From contig CABUQZ010000007.1 in assembly GCA_902493795.1 (NCBI GenBank), positions 4,401-68,400 on the forward strand: a stretch of DNA of 64,000 bases, read 5' to 3'. The first letter of the stretch is position 1; the number at the start of each line of letters is the position of its first letter. Origin of the DNA: an uncultured Clostridium sp. Its GTDB lineage: Bacteria > Bacillota_I > Bacilli_A > RF39 > UBA660. The notes beneath the pieces were generated by a model, which saw only the letters and a program-made list of their open reading frames with translations, did not search any database and was not told where the DNA came from. This document shows, piece by piece, positions 2,055 through 64,000 of this stretch. Made by a program: the position numbers and the translations under genes.

Positions 2055-2055
2055 A

Positions 2056-2250
2056 ATGATATTTAATACTGATTTAAATGCTCAAAGAAACAATACTTAC
2101 ATCTCATCAATAAAGAATTTAGAAAAAGCTAAAGAAATACTTGAACAAAAATTTGCTAAAAAAGAAATAAGCAATGAATATTATATTCAAAAATGTAGAG
2201 AAATAGATAATCAGATAAACAAATGTAAAACAAATATTGGACAAGAATAA
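2056..2250 (+). CDS. small helical protein (64 aa) with one SHOCT-like KKEISNEYY motif
   Basis: ATG 2056 follows AGGAG (2044-2048) and abuts the der stop. The motif resembles the repeat unit of the next gene (KKISVEYYNKYL). Confidence 0.45.
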   Translation: MIFNTDLNAQRNNTYISSIKNLEKAKEILEQKFAKKEISNEYYIQKCREIDNQINKCKTNIGQE

Positions 2251-2272
2251 AACATCATTATGATGTTTTTTT
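2249..2272 (+). terminator. Rho-independent terminator
   Basis: AAAACATC-ATTAT-GATGTTTT hairpin followed by a T-run. Confidence 0.6.
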
Positions 2273-2339
2273 ACTTTGCTATTTTATAGATATAAAGGTA
2301 TAATTATCTTAGTAATAGTAGATCACTAGGAGGAATTAT

Positions 2340-4691: not shown

Positions 4692-5108
4692 ATGGCAATG
4701 AAAGTAAGATATACAGAACTAGGAAGATATGGAGCTAAAATAGGAGTAGATTTGGAAAATTTAACAACTGCCTTAGAGAAAGCAAAAAGTGCTGGAGAAA
4801 ATGCTATTGCAGCAGGTGGAGGAGCAGGAACTGGAGTTGGAAGTGCAATTCAAAGTTCAATTGCAAGCTTTCCTGTAGACCAACATGGTAACGCAGTAAA
4901 AGTAATAGGTGAATTGCAAGCAGCGTTAGAAGGGGTTTCTAAAACTTATGGTCAAGCAGATTCTGATTTGATTAGTCAAATTAATGCAATAAAAGCAAAA
5001 GCTGATGCTTTAGTAGCTGCTCAAAACGGTGGTGGAGGTGCTACATCAAGTGGTACTTTAGGTGGCAGTGCGTCTGTTTCTAGTAACTTTACAAAAGCAG
5101 CATATTAA
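4692..5108 (+). CDS. WXG100-like small helical protein, type B (pair 1)
   Basis: 138 aa. Start MAMKVRYTEL resembles EsxA/YukE-type starts (MA--I-V-pEEL). C-terminal YGQADSDLISQINAIKAKA is shared with the ORF at 5588 and contains YxxxD. The tail is Gly-rich. Confidence 0.5.
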   Translation: MAMKVRYTELGRYGAKIGVDLENLTTALEKAKSAGENAIAAGGGAGTGVGSAIQSSIASFPVDQHGNAVKVIGELQAALEGVSKTYGQADSDLISQINAIKAKADALVAAQNGGGGATSSGTLGGSASVSSNFTKAAY

Positions 5109-26141: not shown

Positions 26142-26486
26142 ATGTATCAAGAACAATTCAATTTATCTCCTAAAGATATTTTAGAAAAAGAATTTAAAAT
26201 AGACACAAGAGGGTATAGATTAAAAGAAGTAGATCAATATCTAGACCTTATAATTAGTGATTATGAACAATTCTTTAAAATATTGAAAGATAAGGATAAA
26301 GAAAAAGAGGAGTTACTTAATGAGATAATGTCTTTAAAGCAAGAAAACAGAAATTTGAAGACTAGTCTAGAGATTGCTAAATCAGCAGATGATGATGGTA
26401 ATGATTCAGGAAAGACAGTATCAAATGTTGATATTATGAAAAGATTATCTCAACTTGAAAAAATAGTTTACGGAAAAGATGAATAA
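26142..26486 (+). CDS. gpsB: cell-cycle protein GpsB (DivIVA-domain)
   Basis: FKIDTRGYRLKEVDQYLD DivIVA-like N-terminal domain followed by a coiled coil. rnpB follows, as in B. subtilis. Confidence 0.85.
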   Translation: MYQEQFNLSPKDILEKEFKIDTRGYRLKEVDQYLDLIISDYEQFFKILKDKDKEKEELLNEIMSLKQENRNLKTSLEIAKSADDDGNDSGKTVSNVDIMKRLSQLEKIVYGKDE

Positions 26487-26842
26487 TACTTAGGGCAAAC
26501 GCTATATATGAGTATATAGAGGAAAGTCCATGCTCACAGAGTCTGAAATGACTCTAGTGTTCGTGCTAAGGGAGAAAGTAACCTTAGGTAGCAAATTAGC
26601 TTTTGCTAACGGCGACGAATTAATCTAAGTCTTTGATATGATTATAGTAGTCATAAAGTGTCAAAGTGACGAATAAACTGGAAACAGTGGAAGTGGAACG
26701 CGATAAACCCCGCGAGTGAGAAACTCAAATATTGGTAGAGGAGCTCTAACAAAGGAATTTTAACAGAGTTAGGGACTAGGTAACTAGTAGATAAATGTTT
26801 GCCACCTAGTAATAGGTACAGAACATGGCTTATTAAGTATTA
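26487..26842 (+). ncRNA. rnpB: RNase P RNA, type B (Firmicutes)
   Basis: Universal blocks GAGGAAAGTCCATGCTC (5') and ACAGAACATGGCTTA (3'), plus AGTGGAACGCGATAAACCCCGCGAGTGAGAAACTCAAAT. P1 pairs TACTTA (26487-) with TAAGTA (-26839). Confidence 0.95.
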
Positions 26843-50984: not shown

Positions 50985-51016
50985 AAAAAGAACTAGTTAT
51001 TTAGTTCTATTTTTTT
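50983..51016. terminator. Bidirectional terminator between convergent genes
   Basis: AGAACTA-GTTATT-TAGTTCT flanked by A7 and T-rich runs. Confidence 0.65.
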
Positions 51017-51816
51017 AATGTAAACGTTTTAAATATTTTAAAATATTCACTATTATCATCAGGACCTTCAATACCAATGTAATGAGTATTGCCATCTTCT
51101 GCTTCAAAGCACCAAACATATAGCCATATTTTATCTTTCTCATAATATCCTGATACTTGATATGCATTATAATTTGATATTTGAATTCTTGCTCCTTGAA
51201 GATCTTTTACTCCTTCTTTACTTAGCTGCGCTGCAACTGCTTTAGCGTAAGTTTCAGCACCTACCTCACTAGTTGCCATAGCATCTAGAGTAATAATATA
51301 TTTAGCATCTTCACTAGAATATTGCAATCCACGAACAGCATTAACATCTTGAAATTTAACCCATTCTTCAGGTATTTCAACATAACCTAAAGTGTTGTTT
51401 CCAACCGTTTTAGTTGTTTTTTCTTCAACAGGTGGATTTTCTTTAACGTCATTATTATCTTTTCCATCACTATCGCTTGTATTAATAATAATTATAGTAA
51501 CAATAATTACTATAACAAATACAATAAAAGCAGCAATACCAATTAAAGCAGTTTTGCTAAGGTTAAATGGCGTCTTTTTCTTTTTATTGTTGTTTTGATA
51601 ATTATATCCATAATTTTGATTATACTGTGGATATTGATTATTATAGTATCCATTTTGGTTATAATACTGACCATTTTGATTGTAGTATTGGCCATTATTG
51701 TAGTATTGTCCGTTGTAATAACCATTTTGGTTGCTATACTGTCCATTATAGTATTGACCGTTTTGATAAGGATAATTATTTTGATTATTCTTGTTACGTC
51801 TTCCCACACACACCAC
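51007..51816 (-). CDS. single-pass membrane protein with a Q/N/Y-rich low-complexity cytoplasmic N-terminus
   Basis: (NGQYYN)-type repeats, TM (LIGIAAFIVFVIVIIVTIIII) and an external domain of about 150 aa. The GTG start overlaps its SD, so the true start may lie a few codons downstream. Confidence 0.55.
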   Translation of the reverse strand: MVCVGRRNKNNQNNYPYQNGQYYNGQYSNQNGYYNGQYYNNGQYYNQNGQYYNQNGYYNNQYPQYNQNYGYNYQNNNKKKKTPFNLSKTALIGIAAFIVFVIVIIVTIIIINTSDSDGKDNNDVKENPPVEEKTTKTVGNNTLGYVEIPEEWVKFQDVNAVRGLQYSSEDAKYIITLDAMATSEVGAETYAKAVAAQLSKEGVKDLQGARIQISNYNAYQVSGYYEKDKIWLYVWCFEAEDGNTHYIGIEGPDDNSEYFKIFKTFTLKK

Positions 51817-51910
51817 TCCTATATTAAAAATATTACCACAATTATTAATAAGTTTCCATAAATATATAAAAAATATTTAAATATTTTACAAAGAAAAAAG
51901 AGCAGAGCTC

Positions 51911-52162
51911 TTATTTATTCTTAACTTTATTAAAAATTTGTTTAACTTGAGAAGCTTTTACATTGCTTACTTCATACCAACCATGCATAGTCATAGTATC
52001 ATAAGTATCAGCCTGATGAGTTAAAGTGTTAGATAATCCAGCATTTAAAAGTTCTCTAACATCTTGATTTGAACTTTCTAAAGTTCCATGAACATATACT
52101 TCTACAGTACTTTTTAGAATTAGTAAATAGTTATCCATTAATTGTTGATCATTCATTTGCAT
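51911..52162 (-). CDS. spore coat protein, CotF-like
   Basis: 83 aa. MNDQQLMDNYLLILKSTVEVYVHGTLESSNQDVRELL..THQADTYD..HGWY matches the Coat F pattern. Confidence 0.65.
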   Translation of the reverse strand: MQMNDQQLMDNYLLILKSTVEVYVHGTLESSNQDVRELLNAGLSNTLTHQADTYDTMTMHGWYEVSNVKASQVKQIFNKVKNK

Positions 52163-52340
52163 AGTCCTCCAATAAATTAATAAGCTCTACTTTGAAAGCA
52201 ATATGTTCATTAAGTTCTTCTTTCATAAATTCTTTTAATTCTTCATCTTGTAAATTATTTATTGTATCAGTTACTATTGCAATAATATTAGTTTCATGCC
52301 CAACGGCATCTTCTACATATAACAATTCTTTTTGTGTCAT
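52149..52340 (-). CDS. small spore-coat-associated protein (CotF-operon partner)
   Basis: ATG 52340 follows GGAGGA. MTQKELLYVEDAVGHE is typical of N-terminal Coat F-like partners. It overlaps the downstream gene by 14 nt. Confidence 0.5.
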   Translation of the reverse strand: MTQKELLYVEDAVGHETNIIAIVTDTINNLQDEELKEFMKEELNEHIAFKVELINLLEDYANE

Positions 52341-52413
52341 ATTTTCCTCCTCACAAGTATTATTTACAAGAAAAAAATTTTTAAACATAAAAAAAGAAAT
52401 ATTTTAAATATTT

Positions 52414-53076
52414 CTAATTGTTATAGTATTTTTTAACATCCTCATATATTCTTTCGATTTCATTAGTTGCATATCCAAATTCTTCTAACAATCCTAAAAG
52501 ATAATCTTCATTGTAATGCTTTACAATGTAGTTGACATACAAAAGCCATCCATCAAAACAGTTAGATCCGTATAAAATATCTTCTAATGAATAGTCAAAT
52601 TTAAGGGTAGAAATATCTTTCTGTTCACTATAATATTGGGCAATACCTTCAAGAATACATTTACAAGGTATTGGAAATTCCCTCAAATAACAATATTCAA
52701 AAGTTACAAAATGAATATATTCATGAAATAATGCTTTCAAATAATATGACATTACATTTAAAGAATCTTGTAATATATTTTTATGAGTTGTATTTTTGTA
52801 ATCACGAAGAGATAAATAATAAATATTTCCTTTATATGAAGTAGTTCCAACATTCCATTCTGGAATAGGGGAATCATTATTTCTTATCTTTTGTAATGTT
52901 TCGTCATATTCTTTTTTTGTAGGGATGATAAAGATATTTGCCTTTTTTTGAGGAACAAATCCAAATAATTTAAATATTGTTTTAGCATTATTATTAAGAT
53001 AGTTTTCAATAGATTTTACAAGTTCGAAGTCAGCTTCATCATATGAATAAATAGCGTAATTACCAATTAATTGCAT
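52414..53076 (-). CDS. hypothetical protein with an HExxH motif (possible zinc metallopeptidase)
   Basis: 220 aa. LFHEYIHFVT. Confidence 0.4.
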   Translation of the reverse strand: MQLIGNYAIYSYDEADFELVKSIENYLNNNAKTIFKLFGFVPQKKANIFIIPTKKEYDETLQKIRNNDSPIPEWNVGTTSYKGNIYYLSLRDYKNTTHKNILQDSLNVMSYYLKALFHEYIHFVTFEYCYLREFPIPCKCILEGIAQYYSEQKDISTLKFDYSLEDILYGSNCFDGWLLYVNYIVKHYNEDYLLGLLEEFGYATNEIERIYEDVKKYYNN

Positions 53077-53163
53077 ATTAAACCTCCGTTATTATATAAA
53101 GATTATATCATTATTAATAAAAAAATACTATTTAAATTATTGATAAACTTTTTGTTTAAATCA

Positions 53164-53192
53164 ATTGACATTTAGTTAATTCCATATTATGA
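53164..53192 (+). promoter_or_regulatory. sigma-A-type promoter
   Basis: TTGACA (53164-53169), 17-nt spacer, TATGAT. Confidence 0.5.
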
Positions 53193-53198
53193 TTAATG

Positions 53199-53303
53199 TG
53201 CATGATGATAAAACATTATGCGTTTCACTCTTACGGACTTAATGTGAGAGTGTATTCAACCAAAACCCCCTGAGCCGGTCCTTAATTGGGCCGGTATTTT
53301 TTT
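53199..53303 (+). ncRNA. candidate small RNA or leader (~105 nt) ending in a GC-rich intrinsic terminator
   Basis: Internal hairpin CACTCT-(15 nt)-AGAGTG. Terminator CCGGTCC-TTAATT-GGGCCGG followed by TATTTTTTT. No ORF. The locally GC-rich sequence stands out from its AT-rich surroundings. Confidence 0.4.
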
Positions 53304-53350
53304 GCCCCAATTTATAAGGGTTTGTAGGGGATAGAATCCGTGATTTTTAT

Positions 53351-53372
53351 TTTAGGTACGATTTAGGTACGA
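53351..53372 (+). repeat. Perfect tandem 11-mer TTTAGGTACGA x2
   Basis: Seen directly at the left edge of the island. Confidence 0.9.
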
Positions 53373-53453
53373 ATTTTCAATGTTTTTAAAGTCAAAACAA
53401 GGGTACTTTAATAAAAAATAGTATAATTATGATATAATTGTTGTGGTGATATA

Positions 53454-54230
53454 ATGCAAACTGAAAGAACTAAGGTTGATTGGTGCTTTAATAAAAAAGC
53501 TAAAGAGGTTGGATATTGGTATTATGTTAATGATTTGGTAACAAATATTTCTAAAAATGGAAACATTTATTCTTGCGATATAGATAAATATAATACTAGG
53601 GTTGAATTTTCCACTAACAGAAAAGAAGAAATTGATGACTTAGAGTGTAATTGTTCATTTTATGAAAATGAAGATAATTTTTGCCCACATGTTTATGCTT
53701 TAGTTTGCTATGCTTTTAAAGTACTTAAAAAATCAAGTGGATATAGTGTTAAATTATTAGAAAAGTATAAAAATATAAATATAAATAAAATCAAAAAAGA
53801 ATTTGATAATGGCAATATTGATTTAATGGATTTAGATATTTTAGGGTATAAATATGAAAGTTTGTTTCCTGATAGAAATAATGAACCGTTATTTGATAGA
53901 TTGGATGAATATATAGAGAGTATGCCAATGGAAGTGCTAGAAAAAGCTAAAAATCAAACTATTTTAGAAGGTGAAGATACAAGCATTTTAGACAAAGCTA
54001 TTAAAAATAAATTAGCGCAGCAAAAAAAATTAGAAGAACAAGAAAGACTAGAAAGAAAAAGAATGAGAAGAGCTATCTTTGCGGGATTTATAGATGGATT
54101 ATTTAATAGTAGTAAAGGTAGTAAACAAGAACAAATAAATATATATGAAAAAGATTATGAACCATATCAATTTGAAGAAGAAGAATTAGAAGAAGATGAT
54201 TATTATTATGAAGATGATAATGAAAAATAA
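53454..54230 (+). CDS. SWIM zinc-finger protein with a coiled-coil and acidic tail
   Basis: CNCSFYENEDNFCPH gives CxCx9CxH (nt 53646-53690). A K/E/R coiled-coil segment follows, and the protein ends EEEELEEDDYYYEDDNEK. Confidence 0.55.
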   Translation: MQTERTKVDWCFNKKAKEVGYWYYVNDLVTNISKNGNIYSCDIDKYNTRVEFSTNRKEEIDDLECNCSFYENEDNFCPHVYALVCYAFKVLKKSSGYSVKLLEKYKNININKIKKEFDNGNIDLMDLDILGYKYESLFPDRNNEPLFDRLDEYIESMPMEVLEKAKNQTILEGEDTSILDKAIKNKLAQQKKLEEQERLERKRMRRAIFAGFIDGLFNSSKGSKQEQINIYEKDYEPYQFEEEELEEDDYYYEDDNEK

Positions 54231-54284
54231 AATATGGTATAATTTTATTTTTTGTAGCATTATATAAAGAAATAAGGTGATTGT

Positions 54285-55226
54285 TTGAAGTCAAGTTGTA
54301 GATCATTAAAATTATCTATAGTATTAGGGGTATTTTTTATAATATCAACAATTATATTATCTATATTAAGTTTAAAATGTAGTAATGAAGTAATAGATAT
54401 TATATTAAATATTTCAATTGGGTTACTTGGAAGTACAATGGTGGCTTTATTGTTAAATATACCTGCGTATGATGTTTCAAAAAGGCAACTTTTAGAAAGA
54501 TTTTGGCACGAGAGTAGAAGGTTGATTTCAAGATTCAGCAAGATTGATTATTTATTTAATGAATATAATGAAGAAAATATAGTTAAATATATTAATGCAT
54601 TAAATAATAAAAAATGGACTGAGGTCTATAATCAATTAACCCCTGAAAATAAAATTGATTGTAAAGAAAAACAATACAAAAAACTTTTGGTAGATGAATA
54701 TATTTTAAATAATCCAGATTTAGAAAGTAAAATTTCAAAATCAGGATTAAAAACATTTGCTAATGAACAAGTGGATAAATATATAGAAAAATTCAGAAAA
54801 AAGGCTGAAATAGTCTTTAAACAATATATTAATTTAGCTAAAGAAAGCACAAAAGAAATGAATTTTATGTTGGGTGATATGCAATTTCTTTCTGGAAATA
54901 AACCTTATGAAAAAATTCATAAAAAAATGTATCAACCATTATTCGATATGCTTGATAAAATAAAAGAACAAAGTTATCATTTTAATTTATATTTAGAGGG
55001 TCATGGAAATGAAGCTGTATGTATAGAAAAAATTTTTGAATTACAAAAGCAATTGTTTAAATTAAAAATAGAAGAAAATGAAACTGTAAAAAATTATACT
55101 GTAATGGGAACTTTTAATGATAATATGTTGATAAATTTAGAAGAATTTAGAGCTGATATGTATAATATAGAACCTGAAAAACAAAATATACATCCTATAT
55201 TATTTAAAAGTCATAAAAAAAGATAA
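54285..55226 (+). CDS. 2-TM membrane protein with a ~240-aa helical cytoplasmic domain (candidate effector)
   Basis: TTG start after AAGGTGA. TMs are LSIVLGVFFIISTIILSILSL and ISIGLLGSTMVALLLNIPAY. Its stop abuts the integrase stop. Confidence 0.45.
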   Translation: MKSSCRSLKLSIVLGVFFIISTIILSILSLKCSNEVIDIILNISIGLLGSTMVALLLNIPAYDVSKRQLLERFWHESRRLISRFSKIDYLFNEYNEENIVKYINALNNKKWTEVYNQLTPENKIDCKEKQYKKLLVDEYILNNPDLESKISKSGLKTFANEQVDKYIEKFRKKAEIVFKQYINLAKESTKEMNFMLGDMQFLSGNKPYEKIHKKMYQPLFDMLDKIKEQSYHFNLYLEGHGNEAVCIEKIFELQKQLFKLKIEENETVKNYTVMGTFNDNMLINLEEFRADMYNIEPEKQNIHPILFKSHKKR

Positions 55227-56330
55227 CTATTCCAAGTTATCTATAATACTCACAACATTATCGAGGGCAGTACTGAACATATGAGAATATGTATTTAGTG
55301 TTTCCTCGATTTTTGTATGTCCTAAAAATTTGGCAACTAATGTAACATTAGCTCCATTGTTAATTAATAATGAAGCACATGAATGTCTAAAGTCATGTAA
55401 TCTTATTGATTTCAATCCAGCTTTGTTTGCTATCAAAGTTCTTCTATCATATATAGTGGTATCACTAATAGGTCTTGCGTCAGATACAACAAAGAAATCA
55501 TCGTTAAAGTTACAATATTCCTTTTTAGACTGCTCGTAGAGCATTTTAAGGTCGTTTAGAAGGACTTTTGTGATAGGAACAATGCGATAACTATCTTTTG
55601 TCTTTGTATCCGAAAATTCGAACTTCGTGCGGTTATTTAACTGGGTAATTTGTTTGTTAACAGATAATACCTTTTTATCAAAATAAATATCTTTCCAAGT
55701 TAAACCTTTTAATTCACCTTTACGTAGTCCACAATAATAAAATATTTCAAATACACATTTCCATCTAAGATCATCTTCACAAGAAATAAACTTCTTAAAC
55801 TCTTCGTAGTTATAGTAAGACATTTCTTTTCTTCTTTCGTTAGGATCTTGGAACTTTGTCATTTTATTATAAAAATTGTTAAAATTAAATCCATGCCATT
55901 TAACTCCAAAGTTAAGAATAGATCTAAGAAATTTATAAATATCATTTTTATATCGTAAAGATAAACCAGCTTTATTTATGTCTCTTTTCCATTGCTCAAA
56001 TTGCATAATGTTAAAATCTTTAATTTTTACGGGAAAGAAGCATTCAATATACTTTTCTTTATGATTATAACCACATAATGTAGTAGCTTTCATTATTTCA
56101 TCATTATGCATTCTAAATTCATCATATAGATCTTTAAACGTCATATTATTATCTTCAACCTTATCAGTAGAAGTAACCATAAACATTCTTTCAGCATCAA
56201 CAGCTTCTTTTTTAGTTGCAAACTTTTTTGATTTATATTGATCCGGTTTACCAAAAGAATCAGTATAATTTACTTTAAAATACCAACATCTACCATCTTT
56301 GGTAGCCTTTTTATCTTTATATATTGGCAC
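55227..56330 (-). CDS. int: tyrosine-type site-specific integrase
   Basis: C-terminal catalytic signature ..GLRKGE..(R), IRLHDFRHSCASLL (HxxR), LGHTKIEETLNTYSHM (H..Y). GTG start. 367 aa. Confidence 0.9.
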   Translation of the reverse strand: MPIYKDKKATKDGRCWYFKVNYTDSFGKPDQYKSKKFATKKEAVDAERMFMVTSTDKVEDNNMTFKDLYDEFRMHNDEIMKATTLCGYNHKEKYIECFFPVKIKDFNIMQFEQWKRDINKAGLSLRYKNDIYKFLRSILNFGVKWHGFNFNNFYNKMTKFQDPNERRKEMSYYNYEEFKKFISCEDDLRWKCVFEIFYYCGLRKGELKGLTWKDIYFDKKVLSVNKQITQLNNRTKFEFSDTKTKDSYRIVPITKVLLNDLKMLYEQSKKEYCNFNDDFFVVSDARPISDTTIYDRRTLIANKAGLKSIRLHDFRHSCASLLINNGANVTLVAKFLGHTKIEETLNTYSHMFSTALDNVVSIIDNLE

Positions 56331-56347
56331 AATTTACACGTCCTTTC

Positions 56348-56376
56348 TTGTGTAAATCCCCAATTAATGATATAAT
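56348..56376 (+). promoter_or_regulatory. extended -10 promoter facing away from int
   Basis: TTGTGT, 17-nt spacer, TGaTATAAT (56368-56376). Confidence 0.5.
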
Positions 56377-56382
56377 TATATA

Positions 56383-56486
56383 CGAGAAATCTCCAAAATT
56401 ATATTTATTATAATTATTAAAGTTTACCAGACTTTTTAATTAGGGATTTTTCATTTTGATCACTGTTCCAGCAGTGGTCTTTTTTT
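56383..56486 (+). ncRNA. candidate antisense sRNA (~100 nt) in the int-repressor intergenic region
   Basis: No ORF. It starts after the extended -10 promoter and ends at GATCACTG-TTCCAG-CAGTGGTC followed by T7. It is antisense to the int leader and carries the 20-mer TTATTAAAGTTTACCAGACT. Confidence 0.5.
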
Positions 56487-57138
56487 ATATATATTTTCTT
56501 TTAACTTGTACTACAATACCAATAATTCTTAAGGACTCAAGTTCTAGAGTTCCTTTTAAATAAGTTTTAGGTTGAATGTTATCACTCATATTAAGTGGCA
56601 TTACCATTATTCCATCATTAATATGTATTAACTTTCTTATTTTTGCATAATCACTATCTTTTTCTAAAACACAATAGAAACCATCTTTATCCATTTTTTT
56701 GCATTCTCTAATAATTAAGCAATCATCTTTATGAAATTCAGGATCCATAGAATTATCATTCATTATTAATCCAAAATAACTTTGATGATTCTTTATCCAT
56801 TCTGGAGGTATTAATTCTTCATCTATTTTAAATGCTTCGTTTTTTAAACACCAAACAGAATCTAAAAATAATTTTGAAAAAACATCAACTTTAACTACAT
56901 CATCATATAAAGCATCATCATCTTCATCAGTTATTTCTTCAATTAAATCAGATTTTTTAATATTAAAATAATCAGCAATTAAATTAATTTTTTCAACACG
57001 TGGGAATATTCTACCTGTGCACCAATCTGTTAGGGTAGTGTATGGAATATTTAAACCTTCAGCAAGTTGTCTTCTTGAAACTTTTCTTTCTTTCATAATA
57101 GCTTTAAGGTTATTTATAAATATATCTCTACTATTCAT
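56485..57138 (-). CDS. CI/LexA-like repressor (XRE HTH + S24 peptidase domain)
   Basis: HTH VSRRQLAEGLNIPYTTLTDWCTG. The S24-like C-terminal domain has DNSMDPEF (Ser) and a downstream Lys (AKIRKL). Confidence 0.8.
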   Translation of the reverse strand: MNSRDIFINNLKAIMKERKVSRRQLAEGLNIPYTTLTDWCTGRIFPRVEKINLIADYFNIKKSDLIEEITDEDDDALYDDVVKVDVFSKLFLDSVWCLKNEAFKIDEELIPPEWIKNHQSYFGLIMNDNSMDPEFHKDDCLIIRECKKMDKDGFYCVLEKDSDYAKIRKLIHINDGIMVMPLNMSDNIQPKTYLKGTLELESLRIIGIVVQVKRKYI

Positions 57139-57171
57139 ATTGTACCTCCTCTAATATAAGTATAACTTAAT

Positions 57172-57210
57172 TTACGAAAAGTTACAAGCAAAATTATGAA
57201 ACTTTCGTAA
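57172..57210. promoter_or_regulatory. operator-like inverted repeat in the repressor/cro divergent region
   Basis: TTACGAAAAGT-(18 nt)-ACTTTCGTAA. Confidence 0.5.
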
Positions 57211-57269
57211 TTTCTATTTACAATTAAAAATTTTTGTAATATTATTAAAATAGGAAGGAGGTTAAAATA

Positions 57270-57548
57270 GTGCAGGCTACGTTAAGAGCAATTCGTGTGC
57301 ACTTAAATATGAGTATTGATGATGCTGCTAAGAAAATAGGTATACCAACAAGTAGATTAAGAGCAATAGAACAACACAAGACAATGCCTAGAATTCCTTT
57401 AGTAAAAAAGATGATGGAAGTATATGATGTAGATATTGATAGTATCTTATTTAATAATAAGGAAGATATAATAAAATTGCATCAATCAAGAACACGAAGA
57501 AAATTTAGATGTAGTAGTAAAGAAGTAAATGAAGTATGTAGTAAATAG
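57270..57548 (+). CDS. Cro-like HTH protein
   Basis: GTG start 8 nt after AGGAGG. XRE-type HTH (LNMSIDDAAKKIGIPTSRLRAIE). Divergent from the repressor. An upstream promoter reads TTTACA-17-TATTAT (57217-57245). Confidence 0.65.
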   Translation: MQATLRAIRVHLNMSIDDAAKKIGIPTSRLRAIEQHKTMPRIPLVKKMMEVYDVDIDSILFNNKEDIIKLHQSRTRRKFRCSSKEVNEVCSK

Positions 57549-57593
57549 AATTTTATATCATGCAGTATCGATATATTTTTTTATAATTCTAAG

Positions 57594-57610
57594 TTACGAA
57601 AATATCGTAA
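57594..57610. promoter_or_regulatory. second operator-like palindrome
   Basis: TTACGA-AAATA-TCGTAA, with the same half-site as 57172-57210. Confidence 0.5.
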
Positions 57611-57658
57611 TTGAAGAGTCTGGTAAACTTTAATAAGAAAATAGAAGGAGATTTAAAA

Positions 57659-57922
57659 ATGAAAAGCAAAACAATAATTCAAGCTGATGAGATGCTGGAG
57701 ATACTAAATAAGCAGTGGGCTACAATACAAGATATAATGAAAATAGGTGCGTTAGGTAGAAATAAAGCTAGAAACATAAAAAATGAAATAGAAAGAAATA
57801 TAATAGATCAAGGATTAAAACTTCCTAATAATTTAGTTCCAATGGAAAAGGTAATTGAATACTTTAAAATTAATCTGGATTTTTTAGTAACAATTAATAA
57901 ATCAAAAAATGGCGAAATATAA
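57659..57922 (+). CDS. 87-aa protein, possible excisionase or DNA-binding accessory protein
   Basis: ATG 57659 follows AAGGAG. Its position (after cro, before the replication genes) and small basic helical sequence are consistent with Xis-like proteins. No motif was recognised. Confidence 0.35.
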   Translation: MKSKTIIQADEMLEILNKQWATIQDIMKIGALGRNKARNIKNEIERNIIDQGLKLPNNLVPMEKVIEYFKINLDFLVTINKSKNGEI

Positions 57923-58721
57923 TAAAGAAAAATATTATTATTTTATGTTAAAATCTAATTTCTTTGATAGTGATGTAATAAGATATCTACAACAAAAACA
58001 AAATGGATATGAAATGATAATCTTATATTTTAAATTAATATTTAAAGCTATAAATAAAGAAGGCAAATTAATTAAAAAAATAGGTAAGAAAAATATACCA
58101 TATACAATAGAAGAATTATCAATTGAAACAGGACATTCTAAAGAACTAATAGAAGATAGTATTAATTACTTTTTAGACACAGAAATGATTGAGAAAAAAG
58201 GTAATACATATTACATAGAAGATGCATTAGTATTAACGAATCAAACTACTGTAGGTGCAATGGAAATGAGAGAATATCGAGCTAAAAATAGTAGGGATAA
58301 ATGTAAGAAAAATTGTAAGCAAAAAGGTAAGACAAATATAGATATAAATAATAATAAATTAGAACTTATAACTAATAAAAAAGAATTAATAAAAAAAGAT
58401 GATAGTAAATATCAAGAAATAATAGATTATTTTAATTTTAAAACAAACTCAAAATATGTATTAATAGATGAATATAAAAAATTAATAGATAATATTTTAA
58501 ATAAATATACAACAGATGATATAAAAATAGTAATAGATAAAAAAACTTCAGAATGGATTAATAATCATAAAATGAGATCATTCCTTAGACCAGAAACATT
58601 ATTAGGTCCTAAATTTGAAAGATATTTACATCAAAAAATTGAACCAAAAACATTAAAAGATATTACAATGGCAGATATTCAAAAAGCAAAAGCTATAAGG
58701 GATGGTAAAGCAAATGGATAA
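57909..58721 (+). CDS. phage replisome organizer / DnaD-like replication protein
   Basis: N-terminal YYYFMLKSNFFDSDVIRYL..GYEMIILYFKL matches the replisome organizer N-domain. C-terminal YQEIIDYFNFKTNSKY..IKIVIDKKTSEW..FLRPETLLGPKFERYL matches the conserved phage C-terminal domain. Confidence 0.7.
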   Translation: MAKYNKEKYYYFMLKSNFFDSDVIRYLQQKQNGYEMIILYFKLIFKAINKEGKLIKKIGKKNIPYTIEELSIETGHSKELIEDSINYFLDTEMIEKKGNTYYIEDALVLTNQTTVGAMEMREYRAKNSRDKCKKNCKQKGKTNIDINNNKLELITNKKELIKKDDSKYQEIIDYFNFKTNSKYVLIDEYKKLIDNILNKYTTDDIKIVIDKKTSEWINNHKMRSFLRPETLLGPKFERYLHQKIEPKTLKDITMADIQKAKAIRDGKANG

Positions 58722-59145
58722 ATTGGATTTTGCAGAGGGAATGAAAATGCTTTCTTCTTGTTATCATAAAGATTTAAATAATGATGATTTTGTTATATGG
58801 TATGAAATGTTAAAAGATATCAATCCAGATGTATTTAAAAAGACAATAATAGAAATATGTAAAGAAAAATCATTTATGCCTACAGTACACGATATATTAG
58901 ATAAATCAAAGAATGTTAATAATAGTTATTATTTATCTATAATTGATAAAATGTATGATGATGGTTATTTTAAAAAGGGATATCAGGAATTAACAGATGA
59001 ACATGCAAATAGAAATTATGATAAAGCAATAAGATGGATAGAAAAGGGAATAATACCACAATTCTTATCAGATGACATGAATGAGTATATAAAATCTAAA
59101 ACTCAAATTAATAATAAAGAAACTTTAAGGATAGAATCATGTTAA
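58702..59145 (+). CDS. hypothetical replication-module protein (possibly a helicase-loader-like protein)
   Basis: It overlaps the upstream stop (alternative start ATG 58714). KEKSFMPTVHDIL is reminiscent of G39P-type loaders. This is a weak call. Confidence 0.3.
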   Translation: MVKQMDKLDFAEGMKMLSSCYHKDLNNDDFVIWYEMLKDINPDVFKKTIIEICKEKSFMPTVHDILDKSKNVNNSYYLSIIDKMYDDGYFKKGYQELTDEHANRNYDKAIRWIEKGIIPQFLSDDMNEYIKSKTQINNKETLRIESC

Positions 59146-59498
59146 GAACTTGTAACGTATGTGGTGGAATCCATCAAGAAGATAAGATGTGTAAAAGAAA
59201 ATATATAAGTAAAAAGAATAGTAAAGCTAATTCATTTAGAAATACTAATGCTTGGATAACAAAAAGAGAACAAATAAAAAGAAGAGATAAGTATCTCTGT
59301 CAAGTTTGTTTAAAGAACAAACTATATACATATAACAATTTACAAGTTCATCATATAATTCCAATAAATATTGACTACTCAAAAAGATTAGATAGTGATA
59401 ATTTAATAACATTATGCACATATCATCATAATCAAGCTGAAAAAGGATTAATAACTAGAGAACAATTATTAGAAACAATAGATCCCCCCGGGGAGTAA
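59139..59498 (+). CDS. HNH endonuclease
   Basis: CQVCLKN..LQVHHIIPI..DNLITLCTYHHNQAE, preceded by an N-terminal Cys pair (CNVCGG). Confidence 0.85.
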   Translation: MLRTCNVCGGIHQEDKMCKRKYISKKNSKANSFRNTNAWITKREQIKRRDKYLCQVCLKNKLYTYNNLQVHHIIPINIDYSKRLDSDNLITLCTYHHNQAEKGLITREQLLETIDPPGE

Positions 59499-59614
59499 AC
59501 AATTAAAAATAATATTTTTTTCTACACCCACAGCCCACCTAAATTCACACAATTATAAATTTTCCGTGAGTTTTTTGGAAAATAAAACAAATAAAAGAGT
59601 ATTAGTACAAACAC

Positions 59615-59938
59615 CTAATACTCAATTTTTTTAATTTCTAAAGAATTTTCATTAGTGATAATTAAAGCATATTTAACTCTTAATAATTTAAAAACCTCAG
59701 CTTTTACTTTTTCTTCATTTTCACCAAACATATTAATTAAATCTTTAGCAGAATTATAATGTTGTAAAAAAGAACCTTCATACATAGCATTTCTATAATA
59801 TGAATTTGCAATATAATAAGCAATGACTTCAGGCATAATATAGCTTTCAATATACTCATCATAATTATCTAAAAAGGGTTTTAATATAGCATTAAATTCT
59901 TCATCACTAATATCAGCATTAGTAGTCTTTCTAATCAT
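59615..59938 (-). CDS. hypothetical protein, 107 aa
   Basis: ATG 59938 follows GGAGGTG. It is the only minus-strand gene between hnh and hsdM. No motif was recognised. Confidence 0.45.
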   Translation of the reverse strand: MIRKTTNADISDEEFNAILKPFLDNYDEYIESYIMPEVIAYYIANSYYRNAMYEGSFLQHYNSAKDLINMFGENEEKVKAEVFKLLRVKYALIITNENSLEIKKIEY

Positions 59939-60105
59939 AGACACCTCCAATTTGTTGTATTAATCACTTAAATATTAAAAAATTACAAGTTATATTTAAC
60001 AAATTTTAAATTTTATTGGCTTAATTAGGCGTCAAAAGTCAATTTTTGTCAATTTTTATGTTATAATTATAAATGGAGAAAACTTTGTAATATGGAGGTA
60101 AAAAT

Positions 60106-61602
60106 ATGAATGAAACTGAATTAAAGAAGTTAGAAGATAGATTATGGTCTGCAGCAGATAAAATGAGAGGTGCAGTGTCAGTATCAGATTATAAATTTAT
60201 AGTATTAGGATTAATATTTTTAAAATATATTTCTGATTCATTTGAAGAAAGATATAAAGAGTTAGTAGAAGAAGGATATGGATTAGAAGAAGAAAAAGAT
60301 AGTTATACAGAAAAGAATATTTTTTATGTTCCTAAAAACGCTAGATGGAGTTATTTAGAGGAACATTCTAAGGATGATAATATTGGAGAAATAATTGATG
60401 ATGCGTTGACTTTAATCGAAAAAGATAATACTTCATTAAAAAATGTATTACCGAAAGATTATAATAGCCCAACAATGAGAAATGTTAACCTTGGAGAATT
60501 AATAGATTTATTTACAAATATTAAAGTTGGAACAAAAGATGCAATTGAAAAAGATATATTAGGAAGAATATATGAGTATTTCTTAGGACAATTTGCTAAG
60601 AATGAATTACAAAAGGGTGGAGAATTCTATACACCAGCATGTTTAGTTAGAACAATGGTTGAATGTATTGAACCATATCAAGGAAGAGTTTATGATCCTG
60701 CATGTGGTTCTGGTGGAATGTTTATTCAATCATTGAAATTTGTTCAAGAACATCAAGGAAATATTAATAATATCAGTATTTATGGGCAAGAAAAAAACCC
60801 AACAACTTGGAGATTGGCAAAAATGAATTTAGCTATTCGTTCTTTAAATGGAGATTTAGGAAAATATGCTGCAGATACATTTACTGAAGACTTACATAAA
60901 GATTTGAAAGCGGATTATATATTGGCTAATCCGCCATTCAATTTGGAATGGGATAGAGATAAAGTTGAAAAAGATCCAAGATGGAGATATGGTCTTGCTC
61001 CAAAAAATAATGCAAATTATGCGTGGCTTCAACACATGATATCCAAATTATCTCAAAATGGTAAAATGGCTTGTATACTTGCGAATGGTTCTTTGGCTGC
61101 TGGTTATGATGAAGCTAAAATAAGAGAGAGATTAATAGAAAATGATTTAATAGATTGTGTTATTGCAATGCCTACAAATTTATTTTATACAGTCACAGTG
61201 CCATGCTCTATATGGATAATTAATAGAAATAAAAAGCAAAAAGGGAAAACTCTATTTATAAATGCGCATAGTCTTGGCGAAATGGTTACAAGAAGACTAA
61301 GAGAATTAACTGATGAAGACATAAAGAAAATCTCAACTACATATCATAATTATGAGAATAATAATAACTATGAAAATATAAAAGGTTTTTGTTCATCTGC
61401 GACTATAGAAGAAATTAAAGGGAAAGGTTTTGCTTTAACACCAGGAAGGTATGTTGGAGTTGATGATACCGGGACAGATGATGTACCTTTTGAAGAAAAA
61501 ATGCAAAGAATTACAAGTGAACTATCTGAACAGTTCGAATTGTCTCATAAACTTGAAAATGAAATTAAAAATAATTTAAAAGCTATCGGTTATGATATAT
61601 AA
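60106..61602 (+). CDS. hsdM: type I restriction-modification system, methyltransferase subunit
   Basis: HsdM N-terminal domain (LWSAADKMRG..YKFIVLGLIFLKYISD). SAM motif I (VYDPACGSGGMF) and motif IV (LANPPFN). Confidence 0.95.
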   Translation: MNETELKKLEDRLWSAADKMRGAVSVSDYKFIVLGLIFLKYISDSFEERYKELVEEGYGLEEEKDSYTEKNIFYVPKNARWSYLEEHSKDDNIGEIIDDALTLIEKDNTSLKNVLPKDYNSPTMRNVNLGELIDLFTNIKVGTKDAIEKDILGRIYEYFLGQFAKNELQKGGEFYTPACLVRTMVECIEPYQGRVYDPACGSGGMFIQSLKFVQEHQGNINNISIYGQEKNPTTWRLAKMNLAIRSLNGDLGKYAADTFTEDLHKDLKADYILANPPFNLEWDRDKVEKDPRWRYGLAPKNNANYAWLQHMISKLSQNGKMACILANGSLAAGYDEAKIRERLIENDLIDCVIAMPTNLFYTVTVPCSIWIINRNKKQKGKTLFINAHSLGEMVTRRLRELTDEDIKKISTTYHNYENNNNYENIKGFCSSATIEEIKGKGFALTPGRYVGVDDTGTDDVPFEEKMQRITSELSEQFELSHKLENEIKNNLKAIGYDI

Positions 61603-61627
61603 ATTTTTGAATAATGATAGGAGTGAT

Positions 61628-62791
61628 ATGATGGAATATACAACATATAAAATATCTGAAATTGGAAATGTAATTACAGGAAAAACACCGCCAACAAAGA
61701 TTAAGGAGTTTTTTTCTGAAACACCAGATAAATATTTATTCATTACTCCAAGAGATATGAATATTGAATCAAAATATATATATTGTACAGAAAGATATTT
61801 AACTGATTATGTCACTGATAAATTTAAAAACATTATTATTGACGAAAAAAGCATATGCGTTAGTTGTATAGGAACTGTTGGGAAAGTATTTATTCCTTCA
61901 CAGTTGTCAATTACTAATCAACAGATTAACTCAATTACAAATATTAAGAGTTTTTGTGATTACAATTATCTATATTATTATTTGAAATGCAATTATAAAA
62001 AGATACAAGCAGTTGCAGGCGGAACTACTATGCCTATTGTAAATAAATCAAGTTTTGAAGATATAGAGGTTGAATTGCCAGATGTTATATATCAAAAAAA
62101 GGTTAGTAAAATTTTAGGAACAATTGATAGTAAAATAAAAATTAACAATGATTTAAATGCTAATATATATAATATGATGATAAATTTATTTAATAATTAT
62201 ATAGATAATTTGGAAACATATGATGAATCAACATTATCAGAAATAGCAAGTTATAAAAATGGATTGGCTATGCAAAAATTTAGACCTATTAATGAAGAAG
62301 GATTACCTGTAATAAAAATAAAGGAAATGAATTCAGGCATTTCATCTGATACAGAAAGATGTAGAACTGATATACCAAGTGACGTAACAATAAATGATGG
62401 TGATGTATTATTTGCGTGGTCAGGAACATTGTGTATGAACATTTGGTGTGGTGGTAAAGCCGGACTTAATCAACATATATTTAAGGTTACATCTGAAAAA
62501 TATCCTAAGTGGTTTTATTATTTTTGGACTTTAAAATATTTAAATAGTTTTATTGAAATTGCAGCAGGGAAAGCTACCACAATGGGCCATATAAAAAGAG
62601 AAGAATTAGATAAAGCAATCGTAAAAATTCCATCAAATGAGAGTATTAAAAAAATGGGAAATATATTTGAGCCATTATTTAAAGAATACATTAATAATAA
62701 TATTGAAAATAGACAGTTAACTGAATTAAGGGATAGTTTGTTACCGAAACTTATTAATGGTGAAATTGACTTAGATAATATTGAGGTATAA
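61628..62791 (+). CDS. hsdS: type I restriction-modification system, specificity subunit
   Basis: Two target-recognition domains separated by conserved helical spacers (..KKVSKILGTIDSKIKINNDLN.. and ..QLTELRDSLLPKLINGEIDL). ATG 61628 follows AGGAG. Confidence 0.9.
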   Translation: MMEYTTYKISEIGNVITGKTPPTKIKEFFSETPDKYLFITPRDMNIESKYIYCTERYLTDYVTDKFKNIIIDEKSICVSCIGTVGKVFIPSQLSITNQQINSITNIKSFCDYNYLYYYLKCNYKKIQAVAGGTTMPIVNKSSFEDIEVELPDVIYQKKVSKILGTIDSKIKINNDLNANIYNMMINLFNNYIDNLETYDESTLSEIASYKNGLAMQKFRPINEEGLPVIKIKEMNSGISSDTERCRTDIPSDVTINDGDVLFAWSGTLCMNIWCGGKAGLNQHIFKVTSEKYPKWFYYFWTLKYLNSFIEIAAGKATTMGHIKREELDKAIVKIPSNESIKKMGNIFEPLFKEYINNNIENRQLTELRDSLLPKLINGEIDLDNIEV

Positions 62792-62793
62792 AG

Positions 62794-63027
62794 ATGGATA
62801 AAAAAATATTACATATTGATTTTAATGAAAAACTACAAGAACAAGATACGGAATATCAAACATATGGATGTAGGCAAAAGAATCCCGATATCTGCTCCAG
62901 TAATGGAATGGAAAATATTTGCGCATTTGCTAGTAAAGATTGTATATGCAAGAAACCATCACGAGCATGGAAAAAACAATTTTTAAAACTTAAAGAAATT
63001 GGTTCTAAAAAAATAGGAAGTGATTAA
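62794..63027 (+). CDS. 77-aa Cys-rich protein nested between hsdS and hsdR
   Basis: It starts 2 nt after the hsdS stop and ends 1 nt before the hsdR ATG. It has six Cys (C-x9-C-x9-C-x6-C-x-C pattern) and a basic tail. Confidence 0.5.
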   Translation: MDKKILHIDFNEKLQEQDTEYQTYGCRQKNPDICSSNGMENICAFASKDCICKKPSRAWKKQFLKLKEIGSKKIGSD

Positions 63028-63028
63028 T

Positions 63029-64000
63029 ATGTTTACAGAAGAACAATTAGAAGATATGACAATGTCGTTGTTAGATAAGTTAAATTATGAATGTAAAAAT
63101 GGTTATAATATTGAAAGAGACTATCATAGTGTTTTTTATGATGATACATTATTTGATGATATAGCTAATATCAATAGAGATTTTACTGATGAACAAATTA
63201 ATGAAGCTATAAAAACTATTAAAAATTTAACTTATAATAACGTTGTAGAAGATAATAAAGAATTTACTAAATATTTATTACAAGGGGTACCGGTAGAAGT
63301 TAAAACTAATACTGGATATCAATATAAAAATGTTAAATTGATTGATTTTGATAATGTAGAAAACAATCACTTCCAAGCTATTAATCAATTTACTATTATT
63401 GAGTTTGAACAAAAAAGACCAGATATAATTATATTTATTAATAGTATTCCTTTAGTAGTAATAGAATTAAAAACTGCTACTAATGAAGATGTTAAGTTAG
63501 AAGATGCGTATCTTCAATTACATAAATATAGAGAAATATCTATACCATCGTTATTTAGATATAATCAATTTTTGGTTATAAGTGATGGTGTAACTGCTAA
63601 AGCAGGAACTATTACAAGTGCATATAGTAGATTTAGTGATTGGAAAAAAGTTGAAGATACAGATGTAGTAACAGAAAATATGCCAACACATGAAACATTA
63701 TTTAATGGAATGCTTAGAAAAGATAGATTGTTAGATTTAATTGGTAATTACATTTTATATAGTAATGATTCTAAAATTTTAGCACAATACCATCAATATT
63801 TTGGTGTTAAGAAAGCAATTAAATCTACTGTGACAACAGGTGCAAAAACAGGTAAAGCAGGAATCGTTTGGCATACTCAAGGTTCTGGTAAATCATTTAG
63901 TATGGTGTTCTATGCTGGTAATATGATTAAAATGTTATTAAATCCTACAATTTTAGTTGTAACAGATAGAAATGATTTAGATAATCAATTATATGAAACT
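63029..64000 (+). CDS. hsdR: type I restriction enzyme, R subunit (N-terminal 324 codons; continues beyond the window)
   Basis: My own translation gives MFTEEQLEDM..RPDIIIFINSIPLVVIELK (nuclease/PD-(D/E)xK region) ..GIVWHTQGSGKSFSMVF (helicase motif I) ..VVTDRNDLDNQ. The frame is open to the window end. Confidence 0.9.
   Translation, partial: MFTEEQLEDMTMSLLDKLNYECKNGYNIERDYHSVFYDDTLFDDIANINRDFTDEQINEAIKTIKNLTYNNVVEDNKEFTKYLLQGVPVEVKTNTGYQYKNVKLIDFDNVENNHFQAINQFTIIEFEQKRPDIIIFINSIPLVVIELKTATNEDVKLEDAYLQLHKYREISIPSLFRYNQFLVISDGVTAKAGTITSAYSRFSDWKKVEDTDVVTENMPTHETLFNGMLRKDRLLDLIGNYILYSNDSKILAQYHQYFGVKKAIKSTVTTGAKTGKAGIVWHTQGSGKSFSMVFYAGNMIKMLLNPTILVVTDRNDLDNQLYET

Follow-up and report, generated by a model that had tools for sequence, protein, structure and literature searches.

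RNA-based immunity and RNA locks on early genes are textbook knowledge for a few Gram-negative phages, mainly those of Escherichia coli and Salmonella, namely c4 of P1/P7, sar of P22 and CI of P4. The c4 RNA and its target come from one operon transcript, out of which c4 is processed; c4 acts on the ribosome-binding site (RBS) of icd, a short upstream open reading frame (ORF) to which ant is coupled, and sar is transcribed within the arc-ant region, directly opposite its target. In the P4 satellite the immunity factor is the CI RNA, not a protein; it pairs with the early leader transcript and causes premature transcription termination. In the replication control of plasmids, the CopA/tap-repA pair of R1 and the Inc RNA/repY-repZ pair of ColIb-P9 combine a structured antisense RNA, contact with the leader by a hairpin loop, block of the translation of a leader ORF and a coupled replication gene downstream. 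Here we analysed a 64-kb stretch of DNA from an uncultured Clostridium sp. (contig CABUQZ010000007.1, hereafter the window), in which the + strand between a phage-type integrase gene (int) and a CI-like repressor gene probably encodes a small RNA (sRNA) that acts in trans, as an antisense repressor of the translation of an 87-aa ORF (ORF87), and that would serve as an RNA-based immunity or maintenance lock beside the repressor. By analogy, it would work like two described RNAs: the c4 RNA (ImmI), a trans-acting RNA of ~77 nt that pairs around the RBS, blocks the synthesis of an early regulator and by its sequence differences defines heteroimmunity between related phages, and P22 sar, an antisense RNA of 68/69 nt that blocks the initiation of ant translation alongside protein repressors (PMC12197685). 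Such locks are essentially undescribed in Firmicute temperate elements, and a review of phage sRNAs published in 2025 gives none of the kind (PMC12197685). In the prophages of Streptococcus pyogenes SF370, Spy_sRNA779816 (89 nt) and the int4-repressor sRNAs were detected by Northern blot and were given no assigned function (PMC4829319).

The proposed sRNA has the anatomy of a gene in its own right. Its promoter (56348-56376, + strand) consists of the -35 box TTGTGT (56348-56353), a 17-nt spacer and the extended -10 TGaTATAAT (56368-56376). A predicted transcript of ~104 nt follows (56383-56486, + strand), its 5' end set from the -10 and its 3' end at the T-run, and this interval holds no ORF of at least 40 aa and no ATG. 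The intrinsic terminator (56458-56486, + strand) is formed by a hairpin with a 9-bp stem and a 4-nt loop (56458-56479), then seven T. The extended -10, the ORF-free stretch of about 100 nt and the + strand terminator are all found where the initial annotation of this DNA had placed them. From sequence, the RNA is predicted to be an independent transcription unit: promoter and terminator are its own, and an ORF is absent. Our consensus promoter scanner, which asks for at least four of six matches in the -35, had missed the promoter because TTGTGT fails this rule. The gap between int and the repressor gene contains one terminator-like site, on the + strand; no T-run follows the 56458-56479 hairpin on the - strand, and the + strand T-run shares two bases with the stop codon of the repressor gene (56485-56487). 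At the other end of the unit, the -35 directly adjoins the Shine-Dalgarno sequence (SD) of int, which lies on the opposite strand. Rfam searches at gathering score returned RNase P only in the whole window, and no match was obtained in 56200-57750 at E-values up to 1; the sRNA appears to belong to no described RNA family and is put forward, by comparison of sequences, as a new one. It differs in this respect from both c4 and sar, and from c4 also by its low-GC Firmicute hosts and by a target that is not an identified antirepressor. As a separate observation, an inverted repeat, ATTTACAC / GTGTAAAT (56332-56339 / 56350-56357), brackets the int SD (56341-56346) and overlaps the -35 of the sRNA; relatives have a different repeat at this place, with ATATCAC near the int start and GTGATAT in the sRNA -10. 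This repeat could form a hairpin in the 5' untranslated region of int or be a regulatory site.

The sRNA carries a 20-mer, TTATTAAAGTTTACCAGACT (56414-56433, + strand), whose exact reverse complement lies at 57617-57636, as the initial annotation had reported. These two are the only matches in the 64 kb, even at three mismatches, against a shuffle expectation of 0.03, and two or more matches were obtained in 0 of 100 shuffles. The end of the far copy is separated by 10 nt from the GGAG (57647-57650) of the ORF87 SD, the ATG being at 57659, which agrees with the position upstream of the SD read in that annotation. The shared element of ~30 nt that had been described is real, and its extent was understated: the 20-mer match extends without gaps over 39 nt at 85% identity (56414-56452 versus 57598-57636), and the ~39-nt element is the core of an inverted duplicate of the whole leader; the pairing covers ~59 nt and reaches the SD. 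RNAduplex predicts a main helix of 29 bp (56414-56442 with 57608-57636), further helices (56404-56409 with 57640-57645, and 56448-56452 with 57598-57602) and an 8-bp helix between AAAUCUCC (56387-56394) and the SD, GGAGAUUU (57647-57654), for a total of -52.5 kcal/mol. Apart from the antisense strand of the sRNA itself, the ORF87 leader is the sole strong site for this RNA in the window. On the RNA, the core pairing segment (56414-56442, + strand) comprises the 20-mer and the hairpin P3 (56419-56425 / 56429-56435, with the loop ACC at 56426-56428), and the anti-SD segment (56387-56394, + strand) lies near the 5' end, where in the free RNA it is contained in the stem P1 (56384-56393 with 56443-56452). 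On the leader, the predicted target site (57597-57655, + strand) holds both the far 20-mer copy and the SD. A reading of the 20-mer as a promoter, with TGGTAAACT as an extended -10, was rejected, as neither copy has a usable -35 or spacing and the 20-mer is too near the SD.

We propose that the + strand between int and the repressor gene would give rise, from the strong extended -10 to the terminator, to a structured non-coding RNA of ~100 nt, the central hairpin region of which would pair with 57608-57636 and the 5' end with the SD at 57647-57654. Since this pairing covers ~59 nt of the leader including the SD, ribosomes would be unable to load, and the duplex could possibly be cut by RNase III. 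The expression of the replisome-organiser gene would probably also be lowered, because ORF87 overlaps that gene. The sRNA differs from c4 in having its own promoter and terminator, in its position beside int, 0.25-1.3 kb from the target, and in being an inverted duplicate of the leader. The RNA gene is likewise unlike sar in being a separate, diverged inverted copy of the leader, and unlike CopA and Inc RNA, which are cis-encoded, directly opposite their targets and fully complementary to them.

The geometry of the pair is conserved in relatives, with other sequences. Three genomes (L001-L003 in our numbering of loci), with repressors 79-96% identical to that of the window, keep the pair and are uninformative on selection because the window and these genomes hardly differ in intergenic DNA; the integrase was therefore used as the anchor of a wider search. 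An inverted pair occupies the same two places in viral contigs whose integrases (Int) are only 38-52% identical, the near copy ~100-130 nt 5' of int and its partner 1.1-1.3 kb further. The sequences of the pair differ among elements and yet match within each element, with the core AGTCTGGTAAACTTTAATAA in the window, AATAAAAAGTCTGCAAAACTTTAAAAC in L005, TCTACGAAACTTTAAAA in L006, GTTAGTCTACCAAACTAAAC in L008-L010, TTTTAAAAAGTCTACGAAACTTTAAAAC in L012 and AAAGTCCCACAAGACAAACAAACAAA in L015. The recurrence of the same geometry with different cores in distant relatives bears out the earlier statement that the match is very unlikely to be due to chance. A scan of metagenomes with an Int profile gave 80 loci, 57 of them with enough upstream DNA, and an inverted match of at least 15 nt was present in 12 of these 57 versus 5 for a direct-repeat control; in further metagenome loci the geometry was the same and the match shorter. 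L016, L017 and a more distant Int clade, whose layout is different, lack both the unit and the pair. Two tandem copies of the target core, ~30 nt apart, are present in the early leader of L008 (3770-3820) and L010 (3775-3823).

On the strand opposite to int, every positive locus shows TTGnnn-17-TGnTATAAT, followed by 92-116 nt and then by a hairpin and a T-run, the latter adjoining the stop codon of the gene upstream of int. A covariance model, R1, run on 96 sources (759 kb), gave exactly one full-length match in each of 36 loci, whose Int are 39-82% identical; all matches are antisense and just 5' of int, 8 are outside the training set and none is stray, and in the window the match covers 56385-56487 with 76.7 bits. 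The promoter TTGnnn-N14-TGnTATAAT is present in all 33 distinct copies, with spacers of different sequence, and its -35 adjoins the int SD in nearly all members. A search of viral contigs with the promoter pattern mostly returned the same contigs, plus an unrelated short-hairpin family: in seven viral contigs (L022, L025, L028, L036, L037, L052 and L058), TTGTGnnAAT-N10-TGATATAAT precedes, by ~40 nt, a conserved hairpin, AGCTTCCAT...GGGGGCT, and a T-run; this is a different candidate RNA of ~60 nt with no inverted partner nearby. We also observed that L006 and L011 are on one 35-kb viral contig (IMGVR_UViG_3300009779_000003), with related integrase genes near both ends; a terminal repeat, an artefact of the assembly or the presence of two elements could account for this.

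The window sRNA folds with a minimum free energy of -25.9 kcal/mol (z = -5.4), and each of the 21 distinct RNAs, folded singly, forms the helices P1, P2 and P3 and the terminator (z from -2.3 to -6.1). P1 closes the 5' end with the segment before the terminator, P2 is an AU-rich hairpin and P3 bears the core of the repeat. When the inner helices are taken from these single-sequence folds and projected onto the alignment, pairing is seen in 78.7% of the alignment cells and covariation scores 0.277, whereas slid controls reach 36-55% and at most 0.13, respectively; RNAalifold on the MAFFT alignment recovered the terminator only. Compensatory changes are seen in 7 of the 10 stem pairs of the terminator among the 21 homologues. 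These comparisons support the view that the unit from promoter to terminator is a conserved, structured RNA gene.

The complementarity to the leader is specific to the strand and to the element. When the RNA body was compared with the early region by RNAduplex, the median energy was -47 kcal/mol for the sense strand and -26 kcal/mol for the opposite strand; the duplex ends in relatives between -19 and +15 nt from the start codon, over or next to the RBS, and most of them have a pairing to the target SD equivalent to that of the window. In an all-against-all matrix, the mean energy is -49.6 kcal/mol for cognate pairs and -24.0 kcal/mol for non-cognate ones. Of 19 RNAs, 17 have their cognate leader in first rank, and the two exceptions fall within the same sequence group. 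The three columns of the P3 loop, in the alignment registered by the model, have three to four bases each, and the target holds the Watson-Crick partner in 22 of 22, 22 of 22 and 21 of 21 loci; in all, 50 columns show at least two types of Watson-Crick pair. As homogenisation of the two DNA copies would also yield covariation, the transition differences between the copies were compared, and 46 were compatible with G.U pairs versus 23 that give A.C mismatches (p = 0.004), an excess that favours pairing on the proposed strands. The data support a complementarity of the RNA to the leader of the next early gene that is conserved, strand-specific, cognate-specific and maintained by compensatory changes.

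The pair also stands in a defined relation to the protein switch. The CI/LexA-like repressor gene (56485-57138, - strand; helix-turn-helix (HTH) and Peptidase_S24 domains) and the divergent gene of a Cro-like HTH protein (57270-57548, + strand) lie between the two copies. L014 and L015 are 95-100% identical outside and ~50% identical exactly between the copies, and both copies are changed together; the pair thus forms the edges of an exchangeable cassette, which takes in cro, the operators and the repressor gene's N-terminal half, and was swapped along with it, in what amounts to a natural swap of RNA-target specificity. Because the pair changes along with the cassette, of which the RNA and its target would form the outer edges, the RNA would act as a second, RNA-based lock beside the CI-like repressor. 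In three minimal islands (L073, L086 and L109), which contain int, the RNA, an ORF87 homologue, a replisome organiser and a 111-aa ORF and lack repressor and cro, the target lies ~250 nt past the RNA terminator with no gene between, which argues that the RNA-leader pair is independent of the protein switch. The presence of the RNA without a repressor gene resembles P4, with no homology to the CI RNA; the pairing here covers the SD and points to a translational block, unlike the termination caused by P4 CI. The spacers between terminator and leader (4030-4356 in L073, 1840-2170 in L086 and 4020-4356 in L109) show in L073 and L086 four GACAGT-type iterons directly 5' of an extended -10, TGTGTTAWAGT.

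Several points weigh against the proposal that the sRNA represses ORF87 in trans. The changes in P1 and P3 are mostly one-sided, and the location of the anti-SD segment inside P1 of the free RNA implies that SD pairing would need strand exchange after an initial contact. The 5' end and the transcript are predictions, in an uncultured host known from metagenomes only. Watson-Crick covariation is equally expected from any process that keeps inverted DNA copies identical, and part of the G.U excess could come from a C-to-T mutation bias of the coding strand. In a lysogen, the operator-flanked promoter of the target may already be off, which would make the RNA seemingly redundant. Finally, a comparable unit adjacent to int in Streptococcus phage Javan636 shows no complementarity to a target.

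The initial annotation had offered, as one of three readings, that a single sRNA represses both int in cis and the 87-aa ORF in trans. This is the best supported of the three, for the trans half only, through the conserved and covarying complementarity to the ORF87 leader. That the RNA acts mainly in cis on int (55227-56330, - strand; Phage_integrase and Arm-DNA-bind_4 domains, SD AAAGGA at 56346-56341), by pairing with read-through transcripts or by head-on promoter interference, the ORF87 match being secondary, seems unlikely. It would fit the constant position of the unit beside int, the contact between the sRNA -35 and the int SD in nearly all members and the lack of a - strand terminator between the repressor gene and int; moreover, L063 (ERZ1023658.392), which has a deletion equivalent to window 56770-59403, keeps int and an intact sRNA gene while the target leader is gone. 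It leaves unexplained a cognate, covarying match that reaches an SD 0.25-1.3 kb away. In addition, the predicted RNA starts ~53 nt 5' of the int start codon and leaves the int RBS uncovered, so that an overlap with the int mRNA would require int transcription to begin farther 5', as in read-through out of the repressor gene. A search upstream of the RNA for an int-sense promoter gave no conserved one, the TGGAGA-17-TATCAT of the window not being conserved (TATCAC in relatives). An effect on int is possible, and the cis and trans roles are not mutually exclusive.

Phage lambda, with its paired OL and OR operators, provides the model for another reading of the initial annotation, in which the copies are DNA sites through which one protein (repressor, Cro, Int or ORF87) controls leftward and rightward transcription together. 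Some features of the locus point that way: the immunity cassette lies between the copies, which change when it does, the core contains a weak dyad, AAAGT-N7-ACTTT, and the far copy is 7 nt from an operator-like 17-bp palindrome, TTACGAAAATATCGTAA (57594-57610, + strand). This palindrome has a sister between the repressor and cro genes (57194-57210); each has one mismatch to TTACGAAANTTTCGTAA, and no other site in the window comes within two mismatches. The position of the former, 7 nt 5' of the far copy, suggests that the target gene is probably also under an operator-controlled promoter. The operator consensus, TTAYGAAA-N-TTTCGTAA, is absent from either 20-mer copy at up to two mismatches, the near copy being adjoined by a decayed relic only. 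A protein site also accounts poorly for a similarity of ~59 nt that includes the SD, for a near copy inside a promoter-terminator unit, for the asymmetry of G.U over A.C and for the persistence of the pair where repressor and cro are missing; every element shows an exact match between its two copies at the variable centre of the dyad, whereas a spacer that is not contacted needs no match. On these grounds we regard a shared protein site as very unlikely.

The nature of the regulated ORF bears on a further alternative. ORF87 (57659-57922, + strand), the first gene after cro and the proposed regulated gene, shares its last 14 nt with the start of the replisome-organiser gene (57909-58721, + strand; Phage_rep_org_N and Phg_2220_C domains), an overlap also seen in L073; the compact integrase module also contains a helicase-loader-like ORF and an HNH gene. 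The ORF87 family is conserved, with 82-87 aa and the motif QWA..DIM..G..GRNKA..LVPM..V..YF.I, and an identical ORF87 is recorded on 214 contigs. No significant match was obtained against Pfam, PHROGs, NCBIfam or PDB sequence profiles. The AlphaFold (AF2) model is confident and all-helical (pLDDT 87, pTM 0.74), with weak HTH-like fold matches, none of them significant; the best Foldseek E-value was 0.3 against PDB and 2e-3, to an uncharacterised protein, against BFVD, and one 'excisionase' was returned at E = 0.34. The 'Xis-like' label given to this ORF in the initial annotation therefore finds no support, neither sequence nor fold placing it with Xis, HTH_17 or Tn916-Xis, and a small DNA-binding protein is plausible. 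The exact 20-mer gave no match in the viral collection, and the ORF87 search of that collection gave no relatives. The soluble ORF87 family is the target in the window and in 11 other loci; in 6-8 other loci a small hydrophobic ORF stands first. In at least six loci the ORF directly behind the target site combines, in 53-65 aa, a basic N-terminus with a hydrophobic helix, and that of L014/L015 encodes a 99-aa membrane-type protein. These small hydrophobic or membrane-type first ORFs overlap a downstream ORF87 homologue, so that 21 of the 22 aligned loci, all except L075, have ORF87 as their conserved downstream gene.

This arrangement recalls the coupling of icd and ant under c4. In the same way, the overlap of ORF87 or of a small leader ORF with the next gene, in an operon that encodes a replisome organiser, is reminiscent of the CopA and Inc RNA systems, the coupling being presumed here. 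The occurrence of basic, hydrophobic ORFs of 53-65 aa in at least six loci, and of the 99-aa membrane-type ORF in L014/L015, would suit a type I toxin-antitoxin pair in which the RNA is the antitoxin and the regulated ORF the toxin. Such a pair is highly improbable given that the target is a soluble protein of the 82-87-aa family in the window (an 87-aa helical protein, not a small hydrophobic toxic peptide) and in 11 other loci, that the small hydrophobic ORF, by its overlap with the ORF87 homologue, is better understood as a leader ORF, and that the small target ORFs matched no PHROG family and no toxin family. Lastly, an inversion of the repressor-cro segment between the copies, the third reading of the initial annotation, to which perfect 20-bp inverted repeats around the switch and an adjacent tyrosine recombinase gene could lend themselves, is scarcely credible, as all 24 assemblies (the window, L001-L003, L062, L066, 10 further ones and other types with full-length covariance-model matches; consensus assemblies are blind to a rare minority orientation) show one orientation with parental junctions and none has a recombinant junction (which would read ...TATTATAA-(20-mer)-CTTCAATTACGA), only ~250 nt of non-coding DNA and no gene separate the copies in L073, L086 and L109, and L008 and L010 have two tandem far copies.

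As regards the genomic setting, a class B bacterial RNase P RNA at 26486-26837 (276.6 bits) indicates that the host is a low-GC Firmicute-type bacterium and that the DNA is chromosomal; the closest relatives of the window are metagenome-assembled genomes that carry the label uncultured Bacilli or Bacillota. Searches with DNA, Int and the repressor returned no relative among cultured phages. The conserved core of the island, ~4.9 kb near recG (55213-60071), is flanked on both sides by defence-type genes that differ across genomes (51007-55226 and 60106-64000 in the window; 1357-3057 and 8211-9995 in L001; L143-L152). The right flank in the window contains a Type I restriction-modification system (hsdM/hsdS) and the left one unnamed ORFs; the flanks in other genomes contain GmrSD, a PemK/MazF-like fusion, HTH+M78, RVT_1, Abi_2, ADP-ribosyl-GH, N6_N4_Mtase and an AAA_11/12 helicase with DUF2726. 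The element looks like a satellite-like island with variable defence cargo, and we infer that it may be a satellite; att-type direct repeats were searched at the island borders within the window and none was found.

The position of the unit is similar to that of the SF370 sRNAs, which lie between int and the next gene or the repressor gene in Firmicute prophages. In Javan636 (L142, Streptococcus uberis), the strand antisense to the region 5' of int has a promoter, then ~95 nt and a strong terminator (4733-4862), at the place reported for the S. pyogenes sRNAs, with no clear complementarity to an early leader. The present proposal provides a testable function for the int-proximal small RNAs of streptococcal prophages that were left unexplained (PMC4829319).

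The RNA family described here is defined by comparison alone, through a covariance model that matches 36 loci and through natural specificity variants, at least 13 in number, which already amount to compensatory-mutation experiments. The orthogonal RNA/leader pairs could find further use as translational regulators. The analysis also draws attention to an abundant gut island, with ORF87 on 214 contigs, in which a conserved core is accompanied by changing flanking defence genes. More speculatively, and with a good deal of doubt, it can be hypothesised that the RNA is the true immunity determinant, that its ~13 or more classes correspond to heteroimmunity groups of gut Firmicute phages and defence islands, and that it is the sole maintenance repressor in the minimal islands. 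If this were true, the system would correspond, among Gram-positives, to the RNA immunity of satellite P4 and might be able to silence a helper or a competitor with the same leader.

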